26,792 nt of DNA from a virus (Duplodnaviria; Caudoviricetes): IMG/VR virus record IMGVR_UViG_3300021516_000080, positions 1 to 26,792 of that record. The stretch is one strand, 5' to 3'. Positions 4 through 20,860 of the stretch are shown here, piece after piece. The position numbers and the translations under genes were made by a program. Each line of letters starts with the position of its first letter. The first letter of the stretch is position 1. A model generated the notes under the pieces. That model did not search any database. It was not told the DNA's origin and was given only the letters and a program-made list of their open reading frames with translations.

Positions 4-231
4 ATGAGCGATCAAACTGAATTACAGCGACTGAGGGACGCGGCGTGGGAGGCGGAGGACAAGGCACGCAAGGCGGAGGCGGCGCGGGCTGAGGCTGCGC
101 GTCATGCGGCGCGTGATGCGGCGGACGCGGCAAAGAACGAGGCTTGGTCGAAGGTGGAGGTGGCGTGGGATGCGGCGGAGGTGGCGTGGGAGGCGTGGAG
201 GGCGGCGTTGGCTGCGGAGGGTGAGAAATGA
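4..231 (+). CDS. Hypothetical Ala/Glu/Trp-rich phage protein
   Basis: Low-complexity AAWEA/VAWDA/VAWEA repeats; stop overlaps the gmhA start (ATGA at 228-231). Confidence 0.6.
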   Translation: MSDQTELQRLRDAAWEAEDKARKAEAARAEAARHAARDAADAAKNEAWSKVEVAWDAAEVAWEAWRAALAAEGEK

Positions 232-803
232 GCGTTCTAACCGACTTAGAAATCAGCCAACGATTGGGCCAGACGGGCCGGTCACTGACGGATCTGGCAC
301 GGGTGCTGCACGATCGGCTGGAACCTGCGACCCAGATGTGTCTGGAGAGTTTGGCAAACGGCGGCAAGATTCTAGTCTGCGGAAACGGCGGGTCAGCGGC
401 GCAGGCGCAACACCTGGTGGCCGAGCTGGTGGTGCGGTTTGAGACCGACCGGCGAGCAATTGCTGCGTTAAGCCTGTCAGCGGACACCAGCGTTTTGACA
501 GCGGCCGGGAACGATTACGGCTTTGAAACGGTGTTTAGCCGCCAGATCGAGGCGCTGGGGACCTCTGGGGACACCCTGATCGTGTTCAGCACCTCGGGTA
601 AAAGCAAAAACATCAAAGAGGCAATCTTTGCGGCCCAGAAAAAGGGCATGAGGATATTGGGAATAAGTGGCCGGAAGGGGATGGCCGCGTTGTGTGCGGT
701 GGACATTATTGCGCCGGGTGAGACCACCGCGGTCATTCAAGAGATGCACCTGGTCATCACGCATCTGTTATGCCACGCAATTGAAAAGGGGATTGGCAAG
801 TGA
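228..803 (+). CDS. gmhA: Phosphoheptose isomerase (sedoheptulose-7-phosphate isomerase, SIS domain)
   Basis: Motifs GGKILVCGNGGSAAQAQHLVAEL, TAAGNDYGFETVFSRQ, STSGKS and IQEMHLVITHLLC; adjacent to heptose kinase and nucleotidyltransferase genes. Confidence 0.93.
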   Translation: MSVLTDLEISQRLGQTGRSLTDLARVLHDRLEPATQMCLESLANGGKILVCGNGGSAAQAQHLVAELVVRFETDRRAIAALSLSADTSVLTAAGNDYGFETVFSRQIEALGTSGDTLIVFSTSGKSKNIKEAIFAAQKKGMRILGISGRKGMAALCAVDIIAPGETTAVIQEMHLVITHLLCHAIEKGIGK

Positions 804-1585
804 CTGACATCATTGATGAATTTAAGGAAGTCACCGTGTTGGTGGTCGGTGATCCGATGTTGGACGTTTACCACGACGGCTACGTCGAGCGGATCAGTCC
901 CGAGGCACCAGTCCCGGTCTTTGTGGAATTTACCCGCGAGACGCGCATGGGTGGGGCTGCCAATGTCGCGGCTAACGTGCGCGCGCTTGGGTGCAACGTA
1001 AAAACGCATTTTCCGACCGTGAACTGGGGCGAGAAACACAGGTACATGGCGGGCAACCACCATTTGCTGCGCATCGACGATGATGTCGACTACGATCCGC
1101 CGACCAATACGCCCGACCTGACTGGCGTTGATGCGGTCATTCTCAGCGATTACGACAAAGGGTGGTTAGATCGGGAATTCGTTGCTGACCTGATTCTGGC
1201 CTGTCGCGTGCACACAATCCCAGTCGTGGTGGACCCCAAGGGTGAGGATTTCAGTAAATATCGAGGCTGCACAATCATTTGCCCCAACTATTTGGAAGCA
1301 GAGAACGTCGTCATGAACGACTTTCCGACCATCTTGTTTAAGCTAGGCGAGCGTGGTTTGTCATTGCACGAAAACGGAATTGACAAACATTTCCCGGCCA
1401 CATCACAAACAGTGTTCGATGTGTGTGGGGCAGGCGACACGGTGGTGGCCGTAGTTGGCGCCTGCCTGGCAGCAGGCGTCGACCTGCACACAGCTGCTGA
1501 ATTGGCAAACCTAGCCGCCGGTCATGTGGTGGGGCAGGTGGGTACGGCGACCTGCTCGGCTGACCAGCTGCGGGCGTTGCTGTGA
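800..1585 (+). CDS. hldA: D-glycero-beta-D-manno-heptose-7-phosphate kinase (HldE/RfaE domain I, PfkB family)
   Basis: Motifs VLVVGDPMLDVY, ERISPEAPVPV, GGAANVA, ILSDYDKG, VVDPKG, FDVCGAGDTV and ANLAAGHVVGQVGT; GTG start overlaps the gmhA stop (GTGA). Confidence 0.92.
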   Translation: MTDIIDEFKEVTVLVVGDPMLDVYHDGYVERISPEAPVPVFVEFTRETRMGGAANVAANVRALGCNVKTHFPTVNWGEKHRYMAGNHHLLRIDDDVDYDPPTNTPDLTGVDAVILSDYDKGWLDREFVADLILACRVHTIPVVVDPKGEDFSKYRGCTIICPNYLEAENVVMNDFPTILFKLGERGLSLHENGIDKHFPATSQTVFDVCGAGDTVVAVVGACLAAGVDLHTAAELANLAAGHVVGQVGTATCSADQLRALL

Positions 1586-2055
1586 AAACGGGGTTGGTTA
1601 ACGGCTGTTTCGACCTGCTGCACGAGGGTCACAAACTGATGCTGGCCGAGGCACTGGCGAACTGCGACCACCTGACCATCGCCCTGAACAGCGATGCGTC
1701 GGTCATGCGGTTAAAAGGACCGACCCGACCGATTCAGAACTGGGGCAACCGGTTTTGGTCAATTCACCGCTGGCATGGTGACCTAGCAAGACTGAAACCC
1801 CGGTGGGAATTGTTGACCCCGATTGCCGTAATCCCGTTCGAAGGAGACGATCAAAAGTTACTTTTGCAGATTCGGCCACAGATTTTGTTCAAAGGTTACG
1901 ATCACGGGGCTTTACCAATCTTTTACCGTAGGATAGGGTGGAAGCATCTGCCTGTCGGTGAACCGGTCTTTGAAGGCCCGGAAATTCATCAGTGCGGCAG
2001 GGTTGAAGGCGTCAGCACGACGAAGTTGTTGGAGCAAATGCATGAAAGCGCCTAA
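1582..2055 (+). CDS. hldC: Heptose-1-phosphate nucleotidyltransferase (HldE/RfaE domain II, cytidylyltransferase fold)
   Basis: Motifs NGCFDLLHEGH (HxGH), LNSDASVMRLKGPTRPIQ, KGYD and GVSTT; GTGA overlap with hldA. The middle segment is divergent. Confidence 0.85.
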   Translation: MKTGLVNGCFDLLHEGHKLMLAEALANCDHLTIALNSDASVMRLKGPTRPIQNWGNRFWSIHRWHGDLARLKPRWELLTPIAVIPFEGDDQKLLLQIRPQILFKGYDHGALPIFYRRIGWKHLPVGEPVFEGPEIHQCGRVEGVSTTKLLEQMHESA

Positions 2056-2609: not shown

Positions 2610-2951
2610 ATGACTAAGCCTCTAAAACACCGACCCGTTGGAAACGACAACGCAGCGCGTGGATCTGAGTTCAAAAGCGCGGTTAAAAGGGCGCTGTCTC
2701 GATCTGGTGGCACGGTGGAAAAGGGATTGGACAAGTTGTGCGACCAGTTGATCGTCGCTGCAATGGCGGGCGAGCAGTGGGCGGTGCAGTTAGTTGCTGA
2801 TCGAGTCGACGGCAAAGCGGCGCAAATTGTTTACGTGGGCGAAGCGCCAGAATTTATAGAGGCACCAAATGGGGTCGAACTCACCGACCGGCTCAACCGC
2901 GCACTCATTGGGCGCAGTGCAATCGACGCTGAGGGCCACTCGGTTCAGTGA
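2610..2951 (+). CDS. terS: Putative terminase small subunit
   Basis: Immediately upstream of and overlapping terL; GNDNAARG N-terminus and AVQLVADRVDGKAAQ motif resemble TerS-position proteins. Confidence 0.65.
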   Translation: MTKPLKHRPVGNDNAARGSEFKSAVKRALSRSGGTVEKGLDKLCDQLIVAAMAGEQWAVQLVADRVDGKAAQIVYVGEAPEFIEAPNGVELTDRLNRALIGRSAIDAEGHSVQ

Positions 2952-4506
2952 TCTAGTTGCGTCGTGGGATGCGCTGGACAGGAACGGGACGGACTACAGC
3001 GCGATGCGGTGGTTGGCGACGGTCGACCGGTACTACCTGTTGGTCAAGCTGTTGGGCCGAGCCGATGCCTGGCACCCGTGGCTGTACGCCCGTTGCCGGG
3101 AAGTCGAAGCAGCTCCAGACGGCCATCTCGACCTGTGGGCGCGAGAACACTACAAAAGCACCATCATCACGTTCGCTGGCATCATCCAGCAGATCCTGAT
3201 CGACCCTGAGATCACGGTGGGAATTTTCAGCCACACCAAACCGATCTCTAAAGCGTTTCTGGCCCAGATTAAACGTGAGCTTCAAAACAACCGGCTATTG
3301 CAGGCGCTGTTCCCCGAGATTCTCTACGCCAACCCCGAGGGTGAAGCGCCCAGTTGGTCGTTGGACAACGGAATTATCGTCAAGCGTAAGAGCAACGCCA
3401 AGGAGGCGACGGTCGAGGCGCACGGGCTGGTGGACGGCCAGCCGACCAGCAGGCACTTCAAGCTTCGGGTCTACGATGACGTCGTGACACTGGAGTCGGT
3501 CAGCACGCCTGAGCAGATCCAAAAGACTACCGAGGCGTGGAGCATGAGCGACAACCTCGGCAGTCTAGGCGGCAAGGTCTGGCACATCGGTACGCGGTAC
3601 TCATTTGCCGACACCTACGCGCACATCATGGGGACTGGGGCTGTGCAACCTCGGGTCTACCCGGCTACCCACGACGGCACCAAGGATGGGCGCCCAGTCC
3701 TGTTCAACCAAACCGAATGGGATCGGCGTATCCAGACGCAGCTAGAGGCGACGATTGCCACCCAGATGTTGCAGAACCCGTTGGCAGGGTCGCAACGCTG
3801 GTTCAACCCAGACGATTTGCAGGTTTATCAGGCACGGCCTGAGGCGCTGATGGTGTACGTGATGATCGACCCCGCTCGGTCCAAAAAAAAAGGCAGCGCC
3901 AACACGGCTATGGCGGTAGTTGGCATCGACCAAAGCGGCCAGAAGTACCTGCTAGACGGCTTTGACCACAAGATGGACCTTTTGGAACGCTGGACCGGGA
4001 TGCGTAGCCTGTGGGCAAAATGGAGGACAGCGCCAGGCGTAATCGGCGTCAAAGTCGGCTACGAGCGGTATGGCGCAATTGCCGACATGGACTATTTTTT
4101 AGAGCGAATCCGGGTGGAGAACGTGCAGGGGCTGAGTATCGAGGAACTGGAATGGCCTGCTGAGGGTCCGGGATCAAAAGACGACCGGGTACAGAGATTG
4201 CTACCCGACATTCGGGGCCACAATTTCTATTTACCCTACGAACCGCAGGACGGTGATCCCGATCTAACCGACCAGCAGAAACGCATGATTCAGGCCGGAT
4301 ATGACTACCGTATCGCGAAGGCGATCATCCAAAGGGACGAAAACGGCCAATTGTACAATCTGTCCGAACGGTTCAGGATGCAGGTGGGCTACTATCCGTT
4401 CACGGGGTTAAAAGACCTTATTGATGCCGTTTCGAGGATCTACGATTTGGACCCCCGGCCACCTGAATACATCGACAGCACCATCTTGGAACCTGAACTA
4501 ACATGA
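2869..4506 (+). CDS. terL: Terminase large subunit (start codon uncertain)
   Basis: Walker A-like WAREHYKST, Walker B-like HFKLRVYDDVV, coupling motif IGTRY, nuclease acidic motifs MIDPA and KDLIDAVS. Confidence 0.9.
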   Translation: MGSNSPTGSTAHSLGAVQSTLRATRFSDLVASWDALDRNGTDYSAMRWLATVDRYYLLVKLLGRADAWHPWLYARCREVEAAPDGHLDLWAREHYKSTIITFAGIIQQILIDPEITVGIFSHTKPISKAFLAQIKRELQNNRLLQALFPEILYANPEGEAPSWSLDNGIIVKRKSNAKEATVEAHGLVDGQPTSRHFKLRVYDDVVTLESVSTPEQIQKTTEAWSMSDNLGSLGGKVWHIGTRYSFADTYAHIMGTGAVQPRVYPATHDGTKDGRPVLFNQTEWDRRIQTQLEATIATQMLQNPLAGSQRWFNPDDLQVYQARPEALMVYVMIDPARSKKKGSANTAMAVVGIDQSGQKYLLDGFDHKMDLLERWTGMRSLWAKWRTAPGVIGVKVGYERYGAIADMDYFLERIRVENVQGLSIEELEWPAEGPGSKDDRVQRLLPDIRGHNFYLPYEPQDGDPDLTDQQKRMIQAGYDYRIAKAIIQRDENGQLYNLSERFRMQVGYYPFTGLKDLIDAVSRIYDLDPRPPEYIDSTILEPELT

Positions 4507-4966: not shown

Positions 4967-7321
4967 GTGCCAAAGATTTCCCAGTTTCCCGCAGGCGGCG
5001 TTGCCCAGAATACCGACCTGATTCCGATCGTGCGTAACGGCGGCGACTACACGGTCACCGGCTACAACCTGGCATCGCTGGCAGCCTACGGTCAAGCCTA
5101 CGTCGGCACGTTCACGGCCACGGCTGGACAGACGGTATTCACCCTGCCCGCATCGCCCGGCTCACTGGCCAACCTGTTCATCGCAGTCGACGGCGCGGTC
5201 ATGGTGCCGGGCAGCGACTACACATGGACAACGCCAACGACCCTGACGTTCTTGGTCGGCTTGAAGGTCAGCCAAACGGTGCTGTACAACTACACGACCT
5301 CAGTCCCCATCGGCACCTCGCTCGCTGGCGGCGTCTCAGGTCAGGTGCAGTACAACAACTCAGGGGTATTGAACGGCACCACAATCGGCGGCGATGCGAC
5401 GCTGGTGGCGACCACCGGCGCACTGACGGTCACCAAGACCAGCGGCGTTGCGTTTGCAGCGTCGGCCACGACCGATACGACCAACGCGGCAAATATCTCG
5501 TCGGGCATCTTGCCGGTTGCACGGCAGAGTTATACGCAGGGCAGCACCGGCTCGGTTGCTCGCACGGTGACGAATAAGTTGCAGGAGTCGGTGTCGGTAA
5601 TCGACTTTGGGGCTGATCCGACTGGGGTGGCCGATAGTACGACGGCGATCAATGCTTGTTACGCATCACTAAGCGCGGGACAGACGGCTGTGTTTCCGTA
5701 TGGCACGTTCAAAGTGTCTGGAACAATCAGCATACCTGCTGGTGTAAACACCACAATGAACGCCAGTGTGACATCGACGGTAGGCAACTATTTCACAATG
5801 AACGGATCGGGTGATTTCAATATGACGGATGGTTTTATGACCAACGTCTATTTGAAACTTATTAACGGAACGCCTCGAATTAGGGGATTTCGTTATACCG
5901 GTTATTTGAACACAGCGGCAATTCTGATCCAGACCGGCGCGTTTCAAAACTTGTATATCTCCGACATTGATATTCAAGCGGCCAACTATGGAATTCTGCG
6001 ACAGGGGGCAGGATCAACGTGCGACTGCGCGCAAATAGTGAACGGGCGTTTTTATAACCTACAAGGTGACGCCATTGAATGGAATGTTGCCATTGGCGAT
6101 ACCGGCGTTCAAATCTCAAACCATGTACTTGATTTAATCAATAACACCAATTCTAGTGCGAACTGGGGAATTGGAATTGGCATTGCCGGTAACACCTACA
6201 GCAATACCTACCCAGATAGCAGTTATGCTCGCGACTTTACGATTTCCAACATCAAAGGAAGCCGTATGGCCCAGTTGATCCACGTTGAAGCCAGCAAACG
6301 GTTTTCAATATTCAACATTGACGGATACGACATATCCAATGCGTACTCAACTGGATCAAGCATAGATCAAGCAACAGTTGCAATTTATGGCTGCACAGAC
6401 TTTACGGTAGAAGGAATTCGCTCAATTGCGGGTACAACCGGAAATGCAACTGCTGGTCAGGTTTTAATCACATACGGAACCAGCGCGGGGTCATATATAT
6501 GCCCAAGCCAAAACTACCAATTGCGAAACGTCTACATGAACAGCGGCGCTGTTACGTTAGATTCGGGTAACTCATCAACCACTGTAGTCGTTGATAACGT
6601 AAATCTTGTTGGGGCGGCTGGCACCTTCACGTTTAACGAGCGCCCGTCTAATTTGATTTTGAAAAACATTAACGCGCAGCGAAATAAAGCCAACGGAGCG
6701 GCATTAAGTTTGGCTCTAGACCTCAACATTGATGGTCGCCATGCGTTTGTTCCTAGTCAGCCAACAAGACTAGAGATTTCAAACGTCAACGGATATGACG
6801 AAAATTACAGCAGCAATACGTCGGTGAGCGGTTTTGTACAGGATCAGGTGTTTCTCCGTTGGAACAATTTCGAAGTTTCAGCGACGGGCAGTCAGGGCGC
6901 TGCCCAAGTGATGCGAGAGGTGAACCGTTTGTATCAAGGCGCATCTAACGGGCTGCCTTACGGGTTTGAATTTGTCCACGGCGATATGTTTATTGATACG
7001 ACTTTAGGAGTTCGGTATGTCTTTAACGCAGGTGGTTCTTTCAACAAAGCCACTGACAATTTTGCCGTTTACGATCAAACAAACCGAATTATAAAATCAA
7101 CGAATTACGCTTGGAATGGAGCGTTTAATCATTCTCCGGGTCAGCGTATTACGCTGACCAACATTGGCACAGCAGGCGCATCGTTAAGTTCGATTGTCCA
7201 AGAAGTTTATACGGCTGGCGGGAATTATTTGATGGTCATTGCTGATGCCATTGCTGCCGCCAATACGACGGCAGGTTCAATTAGTGCAACAAATGCACCG
7301 ACTTACGTCACAACCGCTTAA
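4967..7321 (+). CDS. Tailspike / depolymerase with a WcaM-like (colanidase-like) beta-helix
   Basis: N-terminal fibre anchor motifs (KISQFP, FTATAGQTVFTL, GQVQYNNSG); pectate-lyase-3 type start VSVIDFGADPTGVADSTTAI; WcaM-like segments NYGILRQG, LQGDAIEWNVAI, NWGIGIGIAGNTYSNTYP, QLIHVE and ATVAIYGC. Confidence 0.82.
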   Translation: MPKISQFPAGGVAQNTDLIPIVRNGGDYTVTGYNLASLAAYGQAYVGTFTATAGQTVFTLPASPGSLANLFIAVDGAVMVPGSDYTWTTPTTLTFLVGLKVSQTVLYNYTTSVPIGTSLAGGVSGQVQYNNSGVLNGTTIGGDATLVATTGALTVTKTSGVAFAASATTDTTNAANISSGILPVARQSYTQGSTGSVARTVTNKLQESVSVIDFGADPTGVADSTTAINACYASLSAGQTAVFPYGTFKVSGTISIPAGVNTTMNASVTSTVGNYFTMNGSGDFNMTDGFMTNVYLKLINGTPRIRGFRYTGYLNTAAILIQTGAFQNLYISDIDIQAANYGILRQGAGSTCDCAQIVNGRFYNLQGDAIEWNVAIGDTGVQISNHVLDLINNTNSSANWGIGIGIAGNTYSNTYPDSSYARDFTISNIKGSRMAQLIHVEASKRFSIFNIDGYDISNAYSTGSSIDQATVAIYGCTDFTVEGIRSIAGTTGNATAGQVLITYGTSAGSYICPSQNYQLRNVYMNSGAVTLDSGNSSTTVVVDNVNLVGAAGTFTFNERPSNLILKNINAQRNKANGAALSLALDLNIDGRHAFVPSQPTRLEISNVNGYDENYSSNTSVSGFVQDQVFLRWNNFEVSATGSQGAAQVMREVNRLYQGASNGLPYGFEFVHGDMFIDTTLGVRYVFNAGGSFNKATDNFAVYDQTNRIIKSTNYAWNGAFNHSPGQRITLTNIGTAGASLSSIVQEVYTAGGNYLMVIADAIAAANTTAGSISATNAPTYVTTA

Positions 7322-7358
7322 GGACACCCCATGCCATTCACCAACCCCCTAGACCGCG
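7319..7358 (+). repeat. 40-bp direct repeat, copy 1
   Basis: taaggacaccccatgccattcaccaaccccctagaccgcg; 39/40 identical to 8863-8902. Confidence 0.95.
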
Positions 7359-9129: not shown

Positions 9130-9503
9130 GACTTGATTTCAATGCGGTCATGGAAGCGGGTGACCCCGAGGAAGCGACGCAACTGGCGCTCGCGCAGAAG
9201 GTCGGGGATTCACTCAACCAGGCATACCCCAATCACCCATGGGTCATCGGTTTCCAAGGCGGCGGCATTGTCGTGCGTCACCTCGCAATCGCAGGGTCAG
9301 TCGCCAACGTCATCGGCAAGGAAGGGTTTAGCAGCCTATTGCCCCGTGACAAGCTCGGCACACCAGACGAGATTCGCGACAGTTGCGTTAAATTCGGCGG
9401 GGCATTGCTAGAGGCGTTCGACCTGCCTCGCGGCCCTTGGGACGGACGGGAGCCAACAGTGCCTAAAGCGTGGCGCTACAGACAGACGGATAAATTCCAA
9501 TGA
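9123..9503 (+). CDS. Hypothetical protein preceding the portal
   Basis: Likely ATG at 9123 (MLGLDFNA...) overlapping the previous stop; ATGA overlap with the portal gene. Confidence 0.6.
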   Translation: MLGLDFNAVMEAGDPEEATQLALAQKVGDSLNQAYPNHPWVIGFQGGGIVVRHLAIAGSVANVIGKEGFSSLLPRDKLGTPDEIRDSCVKFGGALLEAFDLPRGPWDGREPTVPKAWRYRQTDKFQ

Positions 9504-11632
9504 GTGAATCGACCCAGTGGCGTCCGCAGCCGCCGAGTATCAAAGACCCGGCACCCGGCGATACCGACCTTTGGTACGCGGCTAACGAGACGGACGGCAT
9601 GGGCATCGAGCCTGAGCAAAACGGGCCAGAGGAAGAACACGACGACTTCGACCCCGAGCAACCTAACTGGCGGCGGCGGGCACAGGATGCCTACCGGTTC
9701 TCCACCTCATTCGTGGATACGAACTACCGCTCGAAGTGGGACGACAGCATCAAGGCGTTCAACAACCAGCACCCTAGCGACAGCAAGTACAACTCCGAGA
9801 TCTTCCGCAAGCGGTCAAGCATCTTCGTCCCCAAGACCCGCGCCATCATTCGCAAGAACGAGGCGGCAGCGGCAGCGGCGTTCTTCAGCAACCTAGACCG
9901 TATCTCGGTCACCCCGGTCAACGGCAACGATGAAGTCGAGCGAGTCTCCGCCGATGTCATGCAGCAGCTGCTCCAGTACCGGCTCACGAAGTCGATCCCC
10001 TGGTTCCAGATCTGCATGGGTGGCCTACAGGACGCGCAGGTGCAGGGCGCCTGTGTGGCCCATGTGTCATGGCGCTATGCGATGCGCAAGGACGCTAAGG
10101 GCAAGCTGATCCGGTCAGACGATAAGCCGATGGTGGACCTGATCCCCATTGAGAACTTCCGCTTCGACCCGTCATCGAACTGGACCGATCCGGTCAACAG
10201 CTCACCGTACCTGATCCACCTGATCCCGATGTTTGTCGTTGACGTCAAACAGCGCATGGAACGGCCAGACCCCAAGGGGCGGCAGTGGAACAAGTACCCC
10301 GACAGCGCGTTAGTCGCTCGGGATGCCGACGACAGCACCCGGCGTGCCCGTGGTGGCAACTCGCAAGACGCCCATCTGGAGCGTCGCACAATATCGGACT
10401 ACGACATCGTGTGGGTGCACCGCCACATTCACCGTTGGAACGGCACCGACTACCAGTTCTGGACGTTGAACAGCGACAAGATGCTGACGGATCCCGAACC
10501 CCTAGACGCCACAGTGTTCCACGGGAAACGTCCGTATGTCATGGGCGTGGCTACCGTCGAGACACACCGCCCGATTCCCTCGTCCATCCCCCAACTGGTC
10601 AAGGGGCTGCAAGATGAAATCAACGAGATCAAGAACAGCCGACTGGATAACGTCAAGTTCGTGCTTAACAAGGGCTACTTTGCCAAACGCGGCAAAAACG
10701 TGGACCTCCCGGCGTTGGTGCGCAACGTACCCGGTCGCGTTGTCCTCATGGACGACCCTGCAACCGACGTTGTGGAGAACACTTGGCCGGATGTGACCGC
10801 CTCGGCCTACGCTGAGGAAGATCGAAACAACCAGAACTTCGACGAGCTGGTCGGCAACTTTAGCGCAGCCTCGGTCCAGACCAGCCGCTCACCACGGGAA
10901 CCGGCCCGGGCAATGACCCTTTTGCAGGCGCCTGCCAACCTGCTAACCGACTATATGCTGATGACCTACTGCGAGACCTTCATTGCGCCCGTCCTGCGCC
11001 AGCTGGTGCTGCTTGAACAGCACTACGAGACCGATCAGACCGTGCTGGAGATCGCTGGCAAGAAGTCCAAGCAGTTCCAGAAGTTCGGCATGGATAAGGT
11101 CACCGACGATATGCTCGAGCGCGAGATGACGGTCAACGTCAACGTGGGCATGGGTAACACCGACCCCGTGACCAAGATGCAGAAGTTTCTGGTTGGCGTC
11201 ACCTCGTTTGCCAAGGTCGCGCAAAAGCCGCCGCCGGGCGTCAATTTGGAAGAAGTATTCAAGGAAATCATGGCCTTGTCAGGCTACGCAGACGGCGAGC
11301 GGTTCTCACTGGGCAACGATCCAGAGAAAGCGGCACAGCAACAGCAGATCAAGCAGTTGCAGATGAAGCTACAGCAGCTGTTGATGGAGCGCCGGGACAA
11401 GTCCGAGGCCAATGCGGTCAAGCGAGACACCGCGACGCAGGGCAACATCGTCAAAATGCTGCTGGCCGACAAAGAGGACTTGCACGAGAACGTCAAAATC
11501 TACGCCGGTCACCTCGCGGCCAAGGATCAGGCATTGCACCAGGCTAACGTCGGTCAAATGTCGGCCGCAGCGGCCCCACAACAGCCGGGACAGGCTCCGC
11601 AGGGCCAGCCCGCACCAGCGCAGGGGATGTAA
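9500..11632 (+). CDS. Portal protein (P22-like)
   Basis: 710 aa between terminase and scaffold; motifs IPIENFRFDP and LQDEINEIKNSRLDNV; Gln-rich coiled-coil C-terminal tail. Confidence 0.85.
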   Translation: MSESTQWRPQPPSIKDPAPGDTDLWYAANETDGMGIEPEQNGPEEEHDDFDPEQPNWRRRAQDAYRFSTSFVDTNYRSKWDDSIKAFNNQHPSDSKYNSEIFRKRSSIFVPKTRAIIRKNEAAAAAAFFSNLDRISVTPVNGNDEVERVSADVMQQLLQYRLTKSIPWFQICMGGLQDAQVQGACVAHVSWRYAMRKDAKGKLIRSDDKPMVDLIPIENFRFDPSSNWTDPVNSSPYLIHLIPMFVVDVKQRMERPDPKGRQWNKYPDSALVARDADDSTRRARGGNSQDAHLERRTISDYDIVWVHRHIHRWNGTDYQFWTLNSDKMLTDPEPLDATVFHGKRPYVMGVATVETHRPIPSSIPQLVKGLQDEINEIKNSRLDNVKFVLNKGYFAKRGKNVDLPALVRNVPGRVVLMDDPATDVVENTWPDVTASAYAEEDRNNQNFDELVGNFSAASVQTSRSPREPARAMTLLQAPANLLTDYMLMTYCETFIAPVLRQLVLLEQHYETDQTVLEIAGKKSKQFQKFGMDKVTDDMLEREMTVNVNVGMGNTDPVTKMQKFLVGVTSFAKVAQKPPPGVNLEEVFKEIMALSGYADGERFSLGNDPEKAAQQQQIKQLQMKLQQLLMERRDKSEANAVKRDTATQGNIVKMLLADKEDLHENVKIYAGHLAAKDQALHQANVGQMSAAAAPQQPGQAPQGQPAPAQGM

Positions 11633-12954: not shown

Positions 12955-13926
12955 ATGGCAGGTCAAGTTTGGGCTGTTAACAGCCTCGGGGGCTATCTCT
13001 ACAGCCGCCAATTATCCAACGTACTGCGCGCTAACGTGCAGCCTCTGGTCAAGTTCCGCCAGTTTGCCGATGTCCACGACATCAGCCAGCAGGGCAAGAA
13101 AAAAGGCGACGTGTTTACGTGGGACGTTTTCTCTGACGTTTCAGCCGCTGGCGCGGTCCTTGTCGAAACAAACACGATGCCGGAAACCAACTTCACGATC
13201 ATTCAGGGCACCCTGACGGTCACTGAAGCCGGTAACAGCGTTCCCTACAGCGGCAAGCTCGACAACCTGTCGAAATTTCCGGTTGAGGACGTCATCAAGA
13301 AGGTACTCAAGAACGATTGCGTCAAGTACCTCGACCGCGCTGCTTGGACCCAGTTCAACCAGACGTTGTTGCGAGCGATCCCAGTCGGCGGCACCAGTTC
13401 CACGGCCATCACGCTCTACACCAACGGCACCGTCACCGGCACCAACAGCATCGCGTTCTCAAACGCGCACGCTAAGGCGATCGTGGACGCAATGAAGGAA
13501 CGCAACATCCCGGCTTATATCGCGGACGACTATTACGCGATTGCATGGCCGACGACCTTGCGTACCCTCAAGAACAACCTTGAGACGATTCACCAGTACT
13601 CGGACACGGGTTTCAACCTCATCATGAATGGTGAGATTGGCCGCTACGAGAACACCCGGTACATTGAGCAGACCAATATCGCCAAGGGCACCGGCACGGA
13701 CGGCACGACCACCACTGCGTGGACGAACGGCGTCAGCGACTGGATGTTCTTCTTCGGCAACGACACGGTGGCAGAAGCCATCGCGGTCCCTGAGGAAATG
13801 CGCGGCAAGATCCCAACCGACTACGGTCGTTCAAAGGGCATCGCCTGGTATTACTTGGGTGGTTTCGGCATTGTCCACACCGCTGCGATTAACACCCGCA
13901 TCGTGAAGTGGGACTCGTTGGCTTAA
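12955..13926 (+). CDS. Major capsid protein (N4-gp56/P22-coat-like HK97 fold)
   Basis: ATG at 12955 after AGGAG; motifs QPLVKFRQFA, GKKKGDVFTW, NGEIGRYENTRYIE and DYGRSKGIAWY; size, position and strong codon bias fit a capsid gene. Confidence 0.85.
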   Translation: MAGQVWAVNSLGGYLYSRQLSNVLRANVQPLVKFRQFADVHDISQQGKKKGDVFTWDVFSDVSAAGAVLVETNTMPETNFTIIQGTLTVTEAGNSVPYSGKLDNLSKFPVEDVIKKVLKNDCVKYLDRAAWTQFNQTLLRAIPVGGTSSTAITLYTNGTVTGTNSIAFSNAHAKAIVDAMKERNIPAYIADDYYAIAWPTTLRTLKNNLETIHQYSDTGFNLIMNGEIGRYENTRYIEQTNIAKGTGTDGTTTTAWTNGVSDWMFFFGNDTVAEAIAVPEEMRGKIPTDYGRSKGIAWYYLGGFGIVHTAAINTRIVKWDSLA

Positions 13927-13939: not shown

Positions 13940-14488
13940 ATGTCTAACCTCAATACTTTGAAGAGTGCGGCCTACGACAACCCGGCCTATCTCGCTCGCG
14001 GCACGTTCGCGACGATCACGGCGGCTGGCGCGTCTGGCGTTTCGGCGAAATTCGTGGCACACGCCAACCTGTTGCTGTTCGGCCTCACGGCCTTCACCAC
14101 GGTTGCGTCCACCTCGACCTACACCGCCACCCAGTACTACAACTACGGTGGAACGACCAACACCTCGGCTACGATTCACGTTGCAGCCTCGCAGCTCAAC
14201 TTGATTCGTATCACCAACACCGCAGCGGTGGGTGTAGCGCCTTCGCTGTCCACCTCGACCATCGGGCCGTTCTACATTGACACGCTGTACGCAAACGGGA
14301 CGGCCACCGGCCAGATCGGCGCGACACAGACGGTCTCGTTGAACACCTCGACGGGTACTGCCGGTTTGGGCGGTCTTTCCATCAATCAGGGCGATCAGAT
14401 CTACGTCGTGAACGGTACGGACACCTCGGGTGTCAACCTTGTCACACTGGATTACCAGATCCTCCCCGGCGCCAACGTACAGGCTTAA
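13940..14488 (+). CDS. Thr/Ala/Gly-rich virion protein, possibly capsid decoration
   Basis: Strong TAAGGAG SD right after the capsid gene; beta-strand-like, Thr/Ser-rich composition. Confidence 0.65.
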   Translation: MSNLNTLKSAAYDNPAYLARGTFATITAAGASGVSAKFVAHANLLLFGLTAFTTVASTSTYTATQYYNYGGTTNTSATIHVAASQLNLIRITNTAAVGVAPSLSTSTIGPFYIDTLYANGTATGQIGATQTVSLNTSTGTAGLGGLSINQGDQIYVVNGTDTSGVNLVTLDYQILPGANVQA

Positions 14489-14498
14489 GGAGTAATTC

Positions 14499-14981
14499 AT
14501 GCCTAAGATCACGCAACCCGGTCGGAAAATGTACGAGACCCCGCAGATCACTGCGGACCAGCTCGCGACCGAAATGTACGGCGGCGATGCTCCGACGCAC
14601 ACTGACATCATCAAGTCTGCCAATGCTCGGGCGCAGAAGCGCCACGAGATGAAGGGCCAGCACGTTGCTGATGTCGGCGTGCTGCCTGACAGTGCGGAGA
14701 TGGCGCACAACGAGCTGGTCGGTGTCCGCAACAGCGGATACCTTGCCAAAAAGGGGCTGGAGTTTGGCGTCAATGCCTTCTACAACAGCCTGCCACCCGG
14801 CATGGACATCGAAGATCAGGAGAATTCCGACATCCGCAAGATGGAGATGCTGGCCTACGAAGGCGGCATCGGCTATCCCGGTGACGGCTGGGTCCATCGT
14901 GCTGCGGGGGCAATGATGCCTAAGACGAAGGACATGGGTCGTCCCGGCATGACCAACGACGTTCCTAGCAAGAAGATCTAG
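14499..14981 (+). CDS. Hypothetical protein, paralog A (LPPGMDIEDQE motif)
   Basis: TAAGGAG SD; motif shared with the next gene. Confidence 0.7.
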   Translation: MPKITQPGRKMYETPQITADQLATEMYGGDAPTHTDIIKSANARAQKRHEMKGQHVADVGVLPDSAEMAHNELVGVRNSGYLAKKGLEFGVNAFYNSLPPGMDIEDQENSDIRKMEMLAYEGGIGYPGDGWVHRAAGAMMPKTKDMGRPGMTNDVPSKKI

Positions 14982-14995
14982 GCGAGGAGCCAGTC

Positions 14996-15442
14996 ATGCC
15001 GAAGGTTGTGCAGGAAAAGTTCCAGATCAACTACCCCGACAAGGGATCGAGTGCTGAAAATCAGCATGGCTGGCTCACTGACATGGAGGCCCGAGCGAAA
15101 AAGGGAATGCCCGGCCGCGAAGGCTTGCCGGGTGGAGATGGTTCCACCCGGATGATGAATAACGCGGCGTTCTTCAATGGCTTGCCACCGGGCATGGACA
15201 TTGAGGATCAGGAAGTCACCGACCAGCGCAAGATGGGCATCAACATTGCGGGCAATATGCCGGGCCAGTTTGCCGATGGCGACCTGACCAATGGCGAGTT
15301 AAGCGCCCATTCGCTGCGGGTTGGCTTTGATAAGAAGGCGCTGCTGCAAACGGATGACGAATACACTCGCGAACACAACGACGCTTTCTACGACGATGTG
15401 GGTGGGTTTATAGAGCGTAATAACTATTTGGATCGGTCATAG
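14996..15442 (+). CDS. Hypothetical protein, paralog B (LPPGMDIEDQE motif)
   Basis: GAGGAG SD; motif shared with the previous gene. Confidence 0.7.
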   Translation: MPKVVQEKFQINYPDKGSSAENQHGWLTDMEARAKKGMPGREGLPGGDGSTRMMNNAAFFNGLPPGMDIEDQEVTDQRKMGINIAGNMPGQFADGDLTNGELSAHSLRVGFDKKALLQTDDEYTREHNDAFYDDVGGFIERNNYLDRS

Positions 15443-15445
15443 ATC

Positions 15446-15844
15446 ATGGCACTTTCAACCCTAAACCCAACTTACCCGGCGAACTCGCTTTCCCCGCTGG
15501 GCGTCTGCAACATTGACGCCACTTCGGGGTTGGTTTACAGCCCCGGCTGCGCCAATTACACCCCGTTAAGCACGACCGGCACGGCTACCATCGACAGCTC
15601 GGGCGGCGGCATCCTGTACGGCGTCAACGCGATCAGTACCGGTACATCGTGGACGATCACGCCTTACGACATCTATGTGCTTGGCACGACCACCACGACC
15701 AACCAGTTGACAGCCACCCAGACGGCTACGGCTGTCGGCTTTCAGGGCAATCCGGGGTCAGGTGGCACGGGCGTCCGCTACAATGGTAATCTGGTGGTGG
15801 TCACAACCGGCACTGGCGGTTTGTGGAACATCCTTTGGGACTAG
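15446..15844 (+). CDS. Thr/Gly-rich putative virion protein
   Basis: Beta-rich, very Thr-rich composition within the structural operon. Confidence 0.6.
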   Translation: MALSTLNPTYPANSLSPLGVCNIDATSGLVYSPGCANYTPLSTTGTATIDSSGGGILYGVNAISTGTSWTITPYDIYVLGTTTTTNQLTATQTATAVGFQGNPGSGGTGVRYNGNLVVVTTGTGGLWNILWD

Positions 15845-15855
15845 TGGGAGCGGAA

Positions 15856-16047
15856 ATGCAAAACGACGAATTCCTGGCTGATGGCACGAAACTGTTTAAC
15901 CCGACTAAACCGCACGGCACCATCTACGGTGAGGGCGGGATCGAGGGTCGATTTGTTCAGGATGGCCTTGTCTACCGTGGCGACCGTCGACCGGTAGGCT
16001 ACGTCGAAACACCGGCAGATCAAAAGACGTTGAAGCTGAAAGTTTGA
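15856..16047 (+). CDS. Hypothetical protein (63 aa)
   Basis: ATG at 15856 after GGGAG; ends just before the terminator. Confidence 0.55.
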   Translation: MQNDEFLADGTKLFNPTKPHGTIYGEGGIEGRFVQDGLVYRGDRRPVGYVETPADQKTLKLKV

Positions 16048-16072
16048 TTCATCCGGTTCATGCCGGGACATG

Positions 16073-16102
16073 AAGACCGGCCCCGCGCCGGTCTTTTATT
16101 TT
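16073..16102 (+). terminator. Rho-independent terminator after the head module
   Basis: Stem AAGACCGGC (16073-16081) / GCCGGTCTT (16087-16095), 5-nt loop, followed by TTATTTT. Confidence 0.75.
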
Positions 16103-16112
16103 AGGAGTTACG

Positions 16113-17594
16113 ATGTCATACGCGAATGCCACAATCAAAAGCCAGCAAGCCGGCGGCGCGTTTACGGTTGCTACGTTACCAACGGCATCGCAAATGATCG
16201 GCGAATCTGTTGGTGTAACGGCATATACCACGGATGGCGGACTGCAATCTTGGACAGGAACCGTCTGGACTACAGTCGTTTCTCAATATCAGGGAACTTG
16301 GAACGCCAGCACTAACACACCTACTTTAACTAGTAGCGTTGGTAGTACCGGAAATTACTATATTGTCTCAACTACTGGGGCAACCGTTCTTGATGGAACG
16401 GGTCAATGGGTAGTTGGTGATATTGTCTCTTTTTCAGGAACCACTTGGGGTCGTGTAGTCGGGCGTCCGGCGCGTCAACTTCTTGGAAAGTCAGTGACGC
16501 TTACACTTTGGGTTGTTGGCACTACAGGAAACGACGCAACCACCAATGGCACTACTTTTGCCACCGCTTTCAAAACAATTCAAGCCGCCGTTGATGCAGC
16601 CTACGCTCGTTATGATGGCAGCGGCGGAACTGTCTTAATTCAAATTTCTTCTACTACGTCTTACGCTAATGCAGTAGCAATAAATAACCAGTTGCCGGGG
16701 GGTGGATTGATATGGCTTAACGGCCAAGGCGGAGCCACATCATTAACTGTCGCCAGCGATAACGCGATTAAGGCCAGTTACGGTGCTAGAGTTCTTATCA
16801 CCGCAATGACGTTATCAACCACCGGCAGCGGTGCTTGCATTTGGGCTGACAGTGGCGCTCAAGTGGTTTATGGTACTAGTGGCGGATTTGCCATGACTTT
16901 TGGTGCTTGCGCTGCAAGCCACCTTGACAGTAGCGGCGGCGCAACAATCGCTGCTCAAAACAATTACAACATTACTGGCGCTTGCGGTTCTCATCTACAC
17001 GCCCGCAATTTAGGCAATATTTACATTTCCGGCGTGGTAATTACTTTAGTTAGCACACCAAGTTGGAGTGCTTATTTCGCCGGTACGTCTTTTGGTTATG
17101 TTGAGTGTATTGGCACATCGTTTGTTGGTAGCGGCACTGGGCCTAAATTTATTTGCCATTTCAATGGCGTTATTCGGTCGTCGGCTGGTTCAGTTGGGGA
17201 TTTGCCCGGCTTAACTATGCCCGGTAGCAGTCCGGGTGTGGCTAATCTTGGAGGTTTGTTCGACGCTTACGGCGCAAGCCCAAGTCGAAAAATTACTATA
17301 AGCGCCCAGACAGCAGCGTTTACTTTGACGTTACCAGCAAACTGCCGCATAAATGCTATTGTGTTTTCAAACAACAACGCAAATGCCGTTACGGGTGGTC
17401 TTAAAGTTGGCAGCGCATTAGGCGGTTCGGATGTTGTCGCGGCGCAGGCTGTTGCTGGTAACGCTTTTGTGGATTCTACCTTGTTGAGCAGGTTGTTCAG
17501 CGCGACGGTAGATCAAACTCTATATGTGGATGCAGTAACAGCGTGGAATAGCGCAAACGTGACAATGACCATGACATATGAATTGCTTTCTTAA
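16113..17594 (+). CDS. Fibre/spike-like virion protein with a probable beta-helix
   Basis: AGGAG SD; YQGTWNASTNTPTL fibre motif; GNDATTNGTTFATAFKTIQAAVD beta-helix cap motif; visibly more AT-rich codons than the core genes. Confidence 0.7.
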   Translation: MSYANATIKSQQAGGAFTVATLPTASQMIGESVGVTAYTTDGGLQSWTGTVWTTVVSQYQGTWNASTNTPTLTSSVGSTGNYYIVSTTGATVLDGTGQWVVGDIVSFSGTTWGRVVGRPARQLLGKSVTLTLWVVGTTGNDATTNGTTFATAFKTIQAAVDAAYARYDGSGGTVLIQISSTTSYANAVAINNQLPGGGLIWLNGQGGATSLTVASDNAIKASYGARVLITAMTLSTTGSGACIWADSGAQVVYGTSGGFAMTFGACAASHLDSSGGATIAAQNNYNITGACGSHLHARNLGNIYISGVVITLVSTPSWSAYFAGTSFGYVECIGTSFVGSGTGPKFICHFNGVIRSSAGSVGDLPGLTMPGSSPGVANLGGLFDAYGASPSRKITISAQTAAFTLTLPANCRINAIVFSNNNANAVTGGLKVGSALGGSDVVAAQAVAGNAFVDSTLLSRLFSATVDQTLYVDAVTAWNSANVTMTMTYELLS

Positions 17595-17620
17595 ATTTGA
17601 ATTTGTTTTAAGGAGTCGCA

Positions 17621-18913
17621 ATGTCATATGACTTACCGGTACGACGCAGCCAACAAGTAGGCAGCGCCTTTACCGTGGCGACCCTACCGACGCTATCGCA
17701 GATGGTCGGCGAACCCATTGGGATGCTCGCGTACACCTCAGACAGTGGCCTGTACGCTTGGAATGGCAGCATCTGGGTATCGGTAGCCGCAAACGCAACG
17801 CTGGCCCTTGGCATCACGCCTGTCGTCGGCGGCACTCCCGGTTATATCTTGTACGACAATGCGGGCTTCGTCGGCGAACTCGCGAACACCGGCACGGGCA
17901 ATAACGTCCTCGCGACCTCACCCACGCTAGTGACGCCCATATTGGGCGCAGCGTCGGGTACGTCTTTAGACCTAACGTCGGCCACGGGGTTGACGTTAAA
18001 CGGGGCGATTTTGGCTAAGACCAAAGCTACGTTGTTTAGTTACACCGGCAGCGCTCAAACGTACACGATGGCAACCGGCTGCATAGCGGTATCTATTTTG
18101 ACCGTGGGCAGTGGCGGCGGCGGCGGTTTTGGGGGTACTTATACGCCCGGAAGCGGATCAGGCGGTGGCGCAGGTGGCGCAGGTTCATATACTTTCAATG
18201 TTCATCGCGCATCGAATCTTAGTGCCGGCTCGCCGTATACCGTAACCATTGGTCAAGGCGGTGCGGGCGGCACCGCAGGATCAACGACAGGCACAATCGG
18301 CGGCATCACAAGCGTTGGCACGATTGCCTATGGCGGCGGTGGTGGCGGCGGTGGTCCCGGTTCTTTAAGCGCGACAAGTGGCGGCGGCGGATCACCTGCT
18401 CCAATTTATGCACAAGCAGGATCAGGGACTACTGGTGGCGGCGCTGGCACCGCTTTTGGTTCTACCGGTGGTGCTGGCGTAGCCGCAGGTGTTGCAGCAT
18501 CTATTTTCGCTGGAAGTGCCGGTGGCGGCAGCAGTAACGTCGGTGTCGCAGGAGCGGGTGGAAATAATCCGTTTGGTGGAATTACTGGTGGCGGCGCTGG
18601 TGGCGGGTTTAATGCCACTGTTGCCGCCGCTGGGGCAGCAAGCGGCATTAGCATTATTAACGCTTTGATTACTTTGGCATCGGGTGGAGCGGCTGGAGCC
18701 GCAGGAACGGCAGGAACGTCCAACACAAATATTGCAACCGGCCCATTTTTTGCTTCTACGGGCGGTGGTGGCGGCGGCGCAGGTGTTAATGGCGCAGCAG
18801 GTGGCGCTGGTGGGTTGGGTGGAGGTGGTGGCGGTGGCGGCGCAGGGTCAACTGCTGGTGGTAACGGCGGCGCAGGTGGCAATGGTCTTGTCTACATCGT
18901 GGAGTACTTTTGA
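17621..18913 (+). CDS. Glycine-rich fibre/adhesin-like virion protein
   Basis: AAGGAG SD; N-terminus paralogous to the 16113 gene; TGTGNNVLATSPTLVTPILG fibre motif; long poly-Gly domain ending GGNGLVYIVEYF. Confidence 0.75.
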   Translation: MSYDLPVRRSQQVGSAFTVATLPTLSQMVGEPIGMLAYTSDSGLYAWNGSIWVSVAANATLALGITPVVGGTPGYILYDNAGFVGELANTGTGNNVLATSPTLVTPILGAASGTSLDLTSATGLTLNGAILAKTKATLFSYTGSAQTYTMATGCIAVSILTVGSGGGGGFGGTYTPGSGSGGGAGGAGSYTFNVHRASNLSAGSPYTVTIGQGGAGGTAGSTTGTIGGITSVGTIAYGGGGGGGGPGSLSATSGGGGSPAPIYAQAGSGTTGGGAGTAFGSTGGAGVAAGVAASIFAGSAGGGSSNVGVAGAGGNNPFGGITGGGAGGGFNATVAAAGAASGISIINALITLASGGAAGAAGTAGTSNTNIATGPFFASTGGGGGGAGVNGAAGGAGGLGGGGGGGGAGSTAGGNGGAGGNGLVYIVEYF

Positions 18914-19194
18914 TGAATCGTTCGGCAACCATCACGGCTGACAACATTGTGCGCGGCATTTACGAATGGGAAGGTGGCGAATTTCAATCCCCTCCCTACG
19001 CACCCGTAGACGTTTATGGCGTCCCGACGGCTGACCCACAGCCCACAACAGCCGTCCCCGACACCGACCCACCGACGGCGCAGATCGGCGAAACATACAA
19101 CCCAGCCGATGGGACGTTTACTTTACCCCCGGCACCAGCACAATCACCCGGATTGATCTCGCGGATTTTGTCCGCGATCAACCCGTTTAAGTAA
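18910..19194 (+). CDS. Small Pro-rich protein, possible fibre assembly partner (likely ATG at 18913)
   Basis: TGATG coupling to the Gly-rich gene; IGETYNPADGTFTLPP motif of the type often found after Gly-rich tail genes. Confidence 0.55.
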   Translation: MMNRSATITADNIVRGIYEWEGGEFQSPPYAPVDVYGVPTADPQPTTAVPDTDPPTAQIGETYNPADGTFTLPPAPAQSPGLISRILSAINPFK

Positions 19195-19213
19195 GCACCA
19201 GAGGGAGGAACTC

Positions 19214-20860
19214 ATGGTCTGGAAAGCAGATGATCCGCAAGGGAACGAGGCAGGCAAGATCCGTTGGGAGTTGCCAAAGTGGACCCGTGGCCGGGGTTTA
19301 GACATCGGTTGTGGCGGAAATAAAGCATTTCCACACATGATTGGCGTAGACAACGGCGCTGATATTCAGCTATTTGGCCATCAGTTCAAGCCCGACGTCT
19401 GGATTGACGACGCGGCAGACTTGAAGATATTCGGCACCGACTCGTTGGACTTCGTGTTTTCCAGTCACGTACTGGAACACATTCCCTACGACAACGTGGT
19501 CAAGTGCCTAAAGGAGTGGCTGCGGGTCATCAAAATCAACGGGTACCTTGTCCTGTACCTGCCCGACGAGACGCTGTACCCAAAGGTCGGTGAGCCGGGA
19601 GCGAATCCCGACCACAAGTGGAACGTGGGCTACACCCGGCTGATTGAGCTGATGGAGAAGGCGGGCAATTGGGATCTGCTCGACTGGCAGCGACGGGATC
19701 AAGGCAGCGAGTACAGCCTGTTCTTCGTCTTTCAGAAAAAGGCGAAGGGGCAGACATTCAGCTGTCTTATCCCCAAGCACCCCAAGCGGGCCGCTGTTGT
19801 CCGGTACGGCGCTTTTGGCGACATCGTCCAAGCGTCGAGCATCTTCGCGGGCCTCAAGGAGCAGGGCTACCATGTCACGGCCTTCTGTTCTCCACCGGGA
19901 TCCGATGTCATCTTGCATGACCCGAATGTAGACGAGTTCTACTATCAGGACAAGGATCAGGTGCCTAACCTAGCGCTGGGTCAGTTCTGGGACTACCAGA
20001 AGGCAAAGTTCGACAAGTGGGTGAATCTGTCCGAGTCGGCGGAAGGAACGCTTCTAGCGATACCGGGCCGGTTCCTGCACGGTGTGCCACCGGCACTACG
20101 GCACAAGCTCACCAACATGAACTATCTGGAGCTGCAACACGACGCGGCGGGCATCCCGCACAAGCCACAGGTGCATTTCTACCCCACCACCGAGGAACGC
20201 GAGTGGGCCAAGGCGCTAAAGGCGCAGAGTGGTGAATTTAACATAGTGTGGTCACTAGCCGGTTCGTCCGTGCATAAAACGTGGCCATTTGTGGATAATA
20301 TCATCGCGGCACTGCTGCTCGAGTTCCCGAAACTGCACATTTTCTTGGTCGGCGGTCCCGCTGCGGTACTGCTTGAGCAGGGTTGGTTCAAGGTAGCCGA
20401 GGACGGTCAGCCGGTGAAGGACGAGAAGGGCCGCAAGGTCCAGATCGACCCCCGCGTACACCCGATGTCGGGCGACTGGTCAATCCGCCAGACCATGACG
20501 TTCAGCCTCGCGGCAGACCTCGTGATCGGGCCAGAGACTGGCGTGCTCAATGCGGTCTCGCACGAACCGATGCCGAAGGTGATCTTCCTGTCGCACTCAT
20601 CGAACGACAACCTGACCCGCGACTGGGACAACACCCATGTTCTCTGGGCCGATAAAACCAGTTGTCCGGGGCGTGGCAACAATGAAGCGCCAGCTTGTCA
20701 CCAGCTGCATTACAACTGGGATCACTGCAAAAACGTGACGGGCGAGGATGGCAAACCGTCCGGGGTGGCGCAGTGTCAGATGGACATCACGCCCGAACAC
20801 GCTCACCGTGTCATTTGGCACGTTATTACAGAGGCGCTAGCGGCGCGAAAGGCAGCTTAA
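19214..20860 (+). CDS. Class I SAM-methyltransferase fused to a GT9 (heptosyltransferase-like) glycosyltransferase
   Basis: MTase motifs GLDIGCGG, IGVD, LDFVFSSHVLEHI and EWLRVIKINGYL. GT9 motifs VRYGAFGDIVQ, HDPNVDE, SVHKTWP, LVGGP and ADLVIGPETGVLN, plus a C-terminal Cys cluster ending CQMDITPE. GGAGG SD. Confidence 0.85.
   Translation: MVWKADDPQGNEAGKIRWELPKWTRGRGLDIGCGGNKAFPHMIGVDNGADIQLFGHQFKPDVWIDDAADLKIFGTDSLDFVFSSHVLEHIPYDNVVKCLKEWLRVIKINGYLVLYLPDETLYPKVGEPGANPDHKWNVGYTRLIELMEKAGNWDLLDWQRRDQGSEYSLFFVFQKKAKGQTFSCLIPKHPKRAAVVRYGAFGDIVQASSIFAGLKEQGYHVTAFCSPPGSDVILHDPNVDEFYYQDKDQVPNLALGQFWDYQKAKFDKWVNLSESAEGTLLAIPGRFLHGVPPALRHKLTNMNYLELQHDAAGIPHKPQVHFYPTTEEREWAKALKAQSGEFNIVWSLAGSSVHKTWPFVDNIIAALLLEFPKLHIFLVGGPAAVLLEQGWFKVAEDGQPVKDEKGRKVQIDPRVHPMSGDWSIRQTMTFSLAADLVIGPETGVLNAVSHEPMPKVIFLSHSSNDNLTRDWDNTHVLWADKTSCPGRGNNEAPACHQLHYNWDHCKNVTGEDGKPSGVAQCQMDITPEHAHRVIWHVITEALAARKAA

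Follow-up and report, generated by a model that had tools for sequence, protein, structure and literature searches.

A methyltransferase-GT9 fusion encoded in a phage virion operon as a candidate heptosyltransferase of capsid threonines

Background

Virion glycosylation is documented mainly in actinophages. For mycobacteriophages, capsid glycans are described (Freeman et al. 2023, cited by PMC11256854 and PMC12619734); there, phage-encoded glycosyltransferases act on the capsid protein and the glycans are C-terminal. Outside phages, TibC is a GT9-like protein O-heptosyltransferase. Viral enzymes for nucleoside diphosphate (NDP)-heptose are also known (Tang et al. 2024, via PMC11573728 and PMC11461863), and their role is stated as unsolved (PMC11573728). 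Here we analyse the virus record IMGVR_UViG_3300021516_000080 (26.8 kb, ~54% complete; this whole stretch is called the window), which encodes a methyltransferase-GT9 fusion protein within a podophage-like late region and, upstream of it, the heptose-synthesis genes gmhA, hldA and hldC. We tentatively propose that the fusion product heptosylates threonines of the phage's own major capsid protein.

Each component of this system has precedent. As in the mycobacteriophages, a phage glycosyltransferase would act on the capsid; here, however, the predicted sites are internal threonines, a GT9 enzyme and an optional heptose cassette are involved, and the family is podophage-like with proteobacterial prophage members. 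TibC and Aah (PMC4358343) differ from the window enzyme in several respects: the window N-terminus is a class I methyltransferase and no beta-barrel, the Cys spacing is different, the match to TIGR04414 is marginal, and the predicted acceptor is a capsid Thr instead of a Ser on beta-helix autotransporters. The GT9 enzymes of the lipopolysaccharide (LPS) core (WaaC, WaaF, WaaQ and Veillonella 3TOV) share only 11-16% identity with the window enzyme, which has Glu/Asn where these have Asp/His, a seemingly non-basic N-lobe, a fused methyltransferase and a place in a phage virion operon. The viral NDP-heptose sets resemble the window in having an isomerase, a kinase and a nucleotidyltransferase without the phosphatase. 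Those reports (including cyanophage P-SSM2/S-CAM1; PMC1079782) leave the role open or suggest LPS change; in the window family, by contrast, the cassette is linked with a transferase and a candidate acceptor, and gmhB is carried by some relatives. Pyle et al. (bioRxiv 10.1101/2023.12.21.572611) describe in their contig 53 a likewise phage-encoded pairing of heptose activation genes with a GT-B transferase. That enzyme, however, resembles T4 beta-glucosyltransferase and modifies 5-hydroxymethylcytosine (5hmC), alongside a C5 methylase and 5mYOX, and a partner of this kind does not appear to be conserved in the window family. By analogy, the window enzyme would work most like TibC combined with the mycobacteriophage systems, although it is no member of the bacterial autotransporter heptosyltransferases (BAHT) and departs from the donor motif of the LPS GT9 enzymes.

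A sequence-only reading of the window had named the four genes, which are present and intact on the plus strand with coordinates that hold. It knew of no characterised phage heptosylation system; this does not stand for DNA, given bioRxiv 10.1101/2023.12.21.572611, and viral heptose synthesis is known (PMC11573728), while our literature searches found no report of heptosylated virions. The features on which the argument turns are the following:

12955..13926, plus strand: major capsid protein, 323 amino acids from the ATG at 12955, predicted acceptor (phrog_1357 major head protein; co-variation with the transferase)
13210..13212, plus strand: codon of capsid Thr86, the column best associated with the GT9 gene (capsid alignment)
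13429..13431, plus strand: codon of capsid Thr159 in a T-N-G-T loop, candidate O-heptosylation site (capsid alignment)
19214..19753, plus strand: fusion protein, N-terminal class I S-adenosylmethionine (SAM) methyltransferase domain, amino acids 1-180 (Methyltransf_11 match at amino acids 29-114)
19775..20860, plus strand: fusion protein, C-terminal GT9 domain, amino acids 188-548 (hhalign, predicted-structure search, invariant columns)
20861-21877, plus strand: head-tail adaptor, directly 3' of the transferase

Results and discussion

Capsid threonines follow the transferase gene

Capsid genes were sampled from the sister branch and from the branches that lack the transferase, and each locus was scored as GT9+, GT9- (adaptor reached without a GT9 match; 12 metagenomic records checked gave no match) or unclassifiable. 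After leaving out 17 unclassifiable loci, 101 unique capsid proteins were compared (87 GT9+ and 14 GT9-). Thr86 is the top-ranked of the 323 capsid columns: it is found in 86 of 87 GT9+ proteins and in none of the 14 GT9- proteins, which mostly have Ser instead. Thr159 is present in 86/87 against 3/14. Similar tendencies are observed for Thr83 (69/87 against 0/14, third-ranked; Ile in the window) and Thr74 (67/87 against 0/14, fifth-ranked), and Lys33 is also among the best columns. The seven nested GT9- proteins that are nearest to GT9+ ones have all exchanged Thr159 for Ala or Val and Thr86 for Ser (7/7 each), and a tree built without the Thr159 loop gives three changes (losses) of gene presence, two of which are forced by well-supported branches. 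Since relatives that lost the transferase have mostly lost the two threonines as well, the phage likely coats its own capsid with sugar. Asn157 varies (Asp, Thr) among GT9+ phages, which agrees better with O-linkage to Thr than with an N-sequon.

The position of the gene points in the same direction. Among 80 capsid-selected loci, 30 (near-duplicates included) span the region from capsid to adaptor, and all 30 carry the transferase, co-oriented and 3-199 nucleotides from the adaptor gene. In the window it lies, as the sequence-only reading had it, between Gly/Ser/Thr-rich fibre-like genes on the 5' side and the adaptor (20861) and head-closure gene Hc3 on the 3' side. The fibre genes 16113 and 17621 are missing from many relatives that keep the transferase, and where the adaptor is of another type (loci L304, L305, L307, L309, L310 and L315), as in prophages of betaproteobacterial genomes, the transferase is still found next to the capsid gene. 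The cultured PTXU04, Bas95 and Vibrio phages have capsid proteins 51-53% identical and the same gene order without the transferase, and they are not among the gmhA or hldA matches either. 

The reading we favour, as a serious but tentative possibility, is that the fusion product attaches heptose, possibly then methylated, to Thr in the major capsid protein; Thr159 and Thr86 are predicted to be the modified site or to serve in recognition.

Two observations on the capsid loci may be added. An opposite-strand open reading frame (ORF) for an HNH endonuclease seemingly splits the capsid gene in the prophage of the environmental isolate Aromatoleum anaerobium LuFRes1 (L309:7103-9097), and the phage module also occurs, as L299, within a 943-kb contig that carries the label of a Thermoplasmata metagenome-assembled genome. 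Within the branch the capsid protein is much more conserved (80-95%) than terL or portal (~50-75%).

The fusion protein resembles GT9 heptosyltransferases

The fusion has 3040 homologues among 8000 candidates scored, forming 492 clusters at 50% identity (E<=1e-30), and no match to it was found in 50,697 INPHARED records. Its C-terminal domain alone has no Pfam match; of the 52 family members, however, 32 match Glyco_transf_9 (PF01075) at E<=0.1, the best of them with 7e-11, and the family profile aligns to GT9 in hhalign with P 97.5 and E 6.3e-12. For the predicted model of the domain (predicted local distance difference test, pLDDT, 94) the top matches in Foldseek and VIA are 3TOV, WaaF, TibC and WaaC; the modelled GT-B fold appears closest to solved GT9 enzymes, and the top fold matches of known activity are all heptosyltransferases. 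D203 and K355 are invariant in 52 family sequences and align to WaaF D13 and K195 (G12-D13 and K195 of WaaF are invariant among four E. coli GT9s). A GT9 identity is supported by this evidence from sequence and model, and the description of the protein as a GT9-family transferase fused to a SAM methyltransferase can be upheld. Hidden Markov model searches suggested by the sequence-only reading gave matches for gmhA, rfaE I/PfkB, rfaE II and Methyltransf_11 (the three heptose genes below cut-offs), and Glyco_transf_9 was matched by family members but not by the window protein alone.

Some properties set the family apart. Among the 150 best representatives, position 441 is Glu in 145 and position 446 is Asn in 123 (His in 8). 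Four Cys (484, 495, 505 and 521) are invariant, with a spacing unlike TibC 339/342/358/370, and BAHT profile TIGR04414 matched only one of 52 family members (E 0.029). The net charge of the N-lobe, counted from sequence, is -2 in the window (family median -1) against +7 for WaaC, +6 for WaaF, +2 for WaaQ and +1 for WaaU; the GT9 domain overall has -9. The methyltransferase domain is decayed or absent in many homologues; it is decayed, for instance, in the prophage of the environmental isolate Pseudothauera rhizosphaerae CC-YHH848 (L315). In record G024 a TylF-like O-methyltransferase gene lies directly 5' of the methyltransferase-GT9 gene (L146:4472-4915).

The heptose cassette

The sequence-only reading had located the heptose genes within the virion module. 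They are in fact found ~17 kb from the transferase, directly 5' of the terminase genes and outside the virion block:

228..803, plus strand: gmhA, sedoheptulose-7-phosphate isomerase, 191 amino acids (NCBIfam PRK13936, TIGR00441)
800..1585, plus strand: hldA, heptose-7-phosphate kinase (PfkB), 261 amino acids, GTG start (TIGR02198, PfkB)
1582..2055, plus strand: hldC, heptose-1-phosphate nucleotidyltransferase, 157 amino acids (TIGR02199, phrog_7878)

The best NCBIfam matches are phosphoheptose isomerase PRK13936 for gmhA (E 1.4e-56; gmhA TIGR00441 at E 3e-52), rfaE domain I kinase TIGR02198 for hldA (E 2e-71) and rfaE domain II adenylyltransferase TIGR02199 for hldC (E 3e-22), all three with scores under the curated cut-offs. 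The genes form a coupled operon in which stop and start codons of neighbours overlap, and a promoter scan of the window gave no signal above shuffles. Residues H62, E66, Q171 and H179 of GmhA are invariant in nine phage copies. The xxxGxSTT motif of HldC has no Arg at position 5. This Arg marks CDP/UDP promiscuity (PMC11573728), though it is not strictly required according to PMC11461863; given its absence from the window HldC sequence, ADP-heptose is the likelier product.

The same cassette layout is found just 5' of the terminase genes in relatives. Among 33 transferase-selected records, gmhA is present in 9 and hldA/hldC in 8 (union 10). As 19 of the 33 are uncounted fragments (seven checked whole end near or before terL, 12 were not fetched), 14 records are informative: at least one heptose gene is found in 10 of these and all three in five, and at least two are found in three of the five complete ones. 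The complete record G039, found via gmhA, has all four enzymes together with the transferase, and five further records of the 33 gmhA-selected ones bear the same GT9. Of these five, G051 and G077 were examined; both are of the same family, and a second layout, hldA-gmhA-hldC-gmhB, is located elsewhere in their genomes; the analysis does not show a separate origin for it.

Relatives of gmhA are rare, with only 289 stretches in a 2.9-million-contig collection (pattern-limited search). In a quick tree, a single group holds 23 of the 26 gmhA sequences from the family, and five host genes fall outside it. The gmhA distances track those of terL (rho 0.87) and of the transferase (rho 0.64), which suggests that the cassette has been resident for long. 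In all five betaproteobacterial genomes examined with such prophages, hldA and a gmhA-like gene are present on contigs other than the prophage one; since the hosts encode hldA, a phage without the cassette need not be without donor.

Minor observations concern the surroundings of the cassette. Its slot is held by a GT4 glycosyltransferase in L137:9531-11404 (G022, plus a Methyltransf_24 gene) and L135:18067-19221 (G021, plus a cupin-like ORF), and a GT4 homologue is also present in G023. A small ORF (2042-2266) with a GDYDLDATI-type motif overlaps the end of hldC, and ORFs of this type also precede terS in G008, G015, G021, G029, G030 and G039, whether the heptose cassette is present or not. 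In one sub-branch an unrelated ORF of ~280 amino acids lies between gmhA and hldA (L141:12244-13083 in G029; L321 ~8950-9800 in G039).

Proposed pathway and its weak points

In the proposed pathway, phage GmhA, HldA and HldC would, to judge from their families, convert sedoheptulose-7-phosphate to ADP-heptose, with the phosphatase step provided by host GmhB. The cassette would act as a dispensable booster, and relatives that lack it would rely on the heptose pool of the host. The GT9 domain would move heptose to capsid Thr late in infection; in this step Asp203 would serve as the base and Lys355 would contact the phosphate of the donor, the acceptor being suggested by co-variation. The fused methyltransferase may then cap the sugar. 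More speculatively, the resulting glycan coat might shield or stabilise the particle.

A number of observations weigh against this proposal. On the capsid side, the signal depends on two well-supported independent losses (three in all), the paired sign test gives p 0.5, with significance out of reach, and the Fisher p-values ignore kinship and were used only to rank columns. The change of Thr86 to Ser keeps the hydroxyl; Thr159 is retained in GT9- L433/L434 and the Vibrio phages and missing from GT9+ L306, and L426, L438 and L439 keep T-N-G-T with no GT9 match within their partial records. Whole-capsid Ser+Thr shows no difference in the sister branch (14.4 vs 14.0%). The outward placement of Thr86 (E-loop) and Thr159 (loop after the spine helix) is our assumption from HK97 topology. 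On the enzyme side, the donor-side motif is altered (Glu441 and Asn446 where E. coli GT9s have invariant Asp and His), and the fold resembles LPS enzymes such as 3TOV and WaaF more closely than TibC, which itself modifies Ser, not Thr (PMC4358343).

Further points against it concern the donor. No gmhB (TIGR01656) is found in the window record or in the complete G008, G021 and G029, and only one of 35 records (G039) has one. The pathway in the window record therefore lacks its phosphatase, and of the GmhA/HldA/GmhB/HldC route invoked by the sequence-only reading only the isomerase, kinase and nucleotidyltransferase genes stand. Records G022, G023, G025 and G030 reach at least 5.6 kb 5' of terL and have no heptose genes (0/4), and hldA distances do not track those of the transferase (rho 0.17, p 0.2). 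In the sister branch none of 18 transferase-bearing records (8 of them at least 90% complete) has gmhA or hldE, both of which are likewise absent from five transferase-less records. The co-occurrence of the two loci thus holds in the window's own branch (10/14) and not in the sister branch (0/18), to which the donor link does not extend: the heptose cassette is an add-on in one branch. The idea that the phage supplies its own donor is weakened accordingly, by transferases without gmhA/hldE in 4/14 near relatives and 18/18 sister-branch records and by the missing gmhB.

Alternative explanations

The sequence-only reading had singled out Thr/Ser-rich virion proteins as targets, and it might be argued that heptose is added chiefly to proteins of the decoration, fibres or neck (13940, 15446, the fibres, the adaptor) rather than to the capsid. 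These proteins are indeed rich in Ser+Thr (17-27%; window fibres 20-24%), the transferase gene adjoins the adaptor gene, and the window-type adaptor (~320-350 amino acids) has a Ser/Thr-rich middle domain that is missing in the 220-235-amino-acid adaptors of transferase-less phages. Such richness (20-27% in the proteins named by that reading) is nonetheless nothing special, as PTXU04 has fibres with 25-29% and a gp12 with 23.5% Ser+Thr without any transferase; moreover, 16113 and 17621 are dispensed with in many GT9+ relatives, the sister branch keeps the gene next to a short adaptor of a different type, and sequons are not enriched. We regard this explanation as unlikely. From the earlier proposal a virion-protein target is retained, indirectly, through the capsid threonines that track the enzyme, and the fibre targets are not. 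Quite unlikely, too, is a capsid glycosylated by an altered GT9 that takes another nucleotide sugar, with the cassette serving a separate purpose or one branch only. The changed motif (E441, N446), the records without cassette in both branches and the GT4 genes in its slot in G021 and G022 would fit such an enzyme; the heptosyltransferase activity of all characterised top fold matches, the recurrence of heptose genes in two layouts and the hldA of the prophage hosts, by which cassette loss is not donor loss, do not.

Addition of (methyl)heptose to the host LPS core, for superinfection exclusion or to keep progeny off cell debris, would agree with LPS heptosyltransferases being the nearest structures and profiles, with the prophages among the relatives and with what has been proposed for the LPS genes in cyanophage P-SSM2 (PMC1079782). 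We nevertheless consider it improbable: the gene is no variable moron but keeps a fixed place and orientation in the virion operon, its N-lobe has a neutral to acidic net charge by sequence count, unlike those of WaaC and WaaF (though WaaQ and WaaU are near neutral too), and the co-variation of capsid Thr would be left unexplained. Least probable by far is heptosylation of phage DNA as in the contig-53 pathway. There (bioRxiv 10.1101/2023.12.21.572611), a phage kinase, nucleotidyltransferase and GT-B set yields mono- and di-heptosyl-5hmC, and thymidine-modification genes do occur in G030 and a C5 methylase in G024. The contig-53 enzymes, however, are described there as T4 beta-glucosyltransferase-like and in need of a 5mYOX partner, whereas the window enzyme is GT9-like, acidic (-9) and encoded in the virion operon. 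Tet_JBP was matched in 0 of 35 records (a weak negative, as no control genome matched either) and in none of 218 representative ORFs of 15 relatives, and ThyS/HMUDK was found only in G030 among the scanned representatives. That record, complete and without heptose genes, encodes a ThyS-like protein, two 5-hydroxymethyldeoxyuridine (5-hmdU) kinase domains and an amino acid:DNA transferase (L144:6328-9954).

An extension of capsid heptosylation from the window to its relatives is a serious possibility too, though a slightly less probable one. On this view a large, mostly uncultured family of podophage-like viruses that infect Gram-negative bacteria would O-heptosylate hundreds of capsid subunits at defined Thr by means of a dedicated GT9 subfamily, with many members also O-methylating and one branch having added the heptose cassette. 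This would be the first heptose capsid coat, and a case of virion glycosylation outside actinophages with predicted sites. As the family links the cassette to one transferase and named capsid residues, the proposal can be tested with one enzyme, one acceptor and two positions. Given the size of the family, a capsid glycan, if true, would be widespread, though so far hidden, among environmental phages, and phage 'LPS heptosyltransferase' annotations may not denote host-remodelling genes.

Other genes of the window and its relatives

The remaining late region is podophage-like according to Pfam/PHROG profiles, with ejection proteins besides the genes given above and below:

2610-2951, plus strand: terminase small subunit (by position)
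2869-4506, plus strand: terminase large subunit (phrog_38)
9500..11632, plus strand: portal protein (SU10_portal E 4.7e-24)
13940..18913, plus strand: Thr/Ser-rich putative decoration and fibre genes (13940, 15446, 16113, 17621)
21877-23295, plus strand: head-closure Hc3 (phrog_578)

Between terL and portal, the stretch 4967-8865 encodes a WcaM-like colanic-acid depolymerase spike and a GDSL-esterase fibre; it is variable among relatives and has a GC content of 46-48% against ~58% in its surroundings. Two tandem genes at 14499-15442 (160 and 148 amino acids) have a common PPGMDIEDQE motif, occur in most of the branch and have no Pfam/PHROG match. Among the tail genes, 23666-24523 encodes a SET-domain protein (Pfam E 1e-5; phrog_34170) that some of the relatives share. 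Downstream of the ejection genes, at a position expected past the window's end, 13 of 15 relatives encode members of one protein cluster, whose representative (L143:10218-11549 in G030) has GARS-like ATP-grasp domains. Finally, G025 encodes an Acb3 protein (Pfam E 3.5e-61; L154:7983-8879) directed against the cyclic oligonucleotide-based antiphage signalling system (anti-CBASS).

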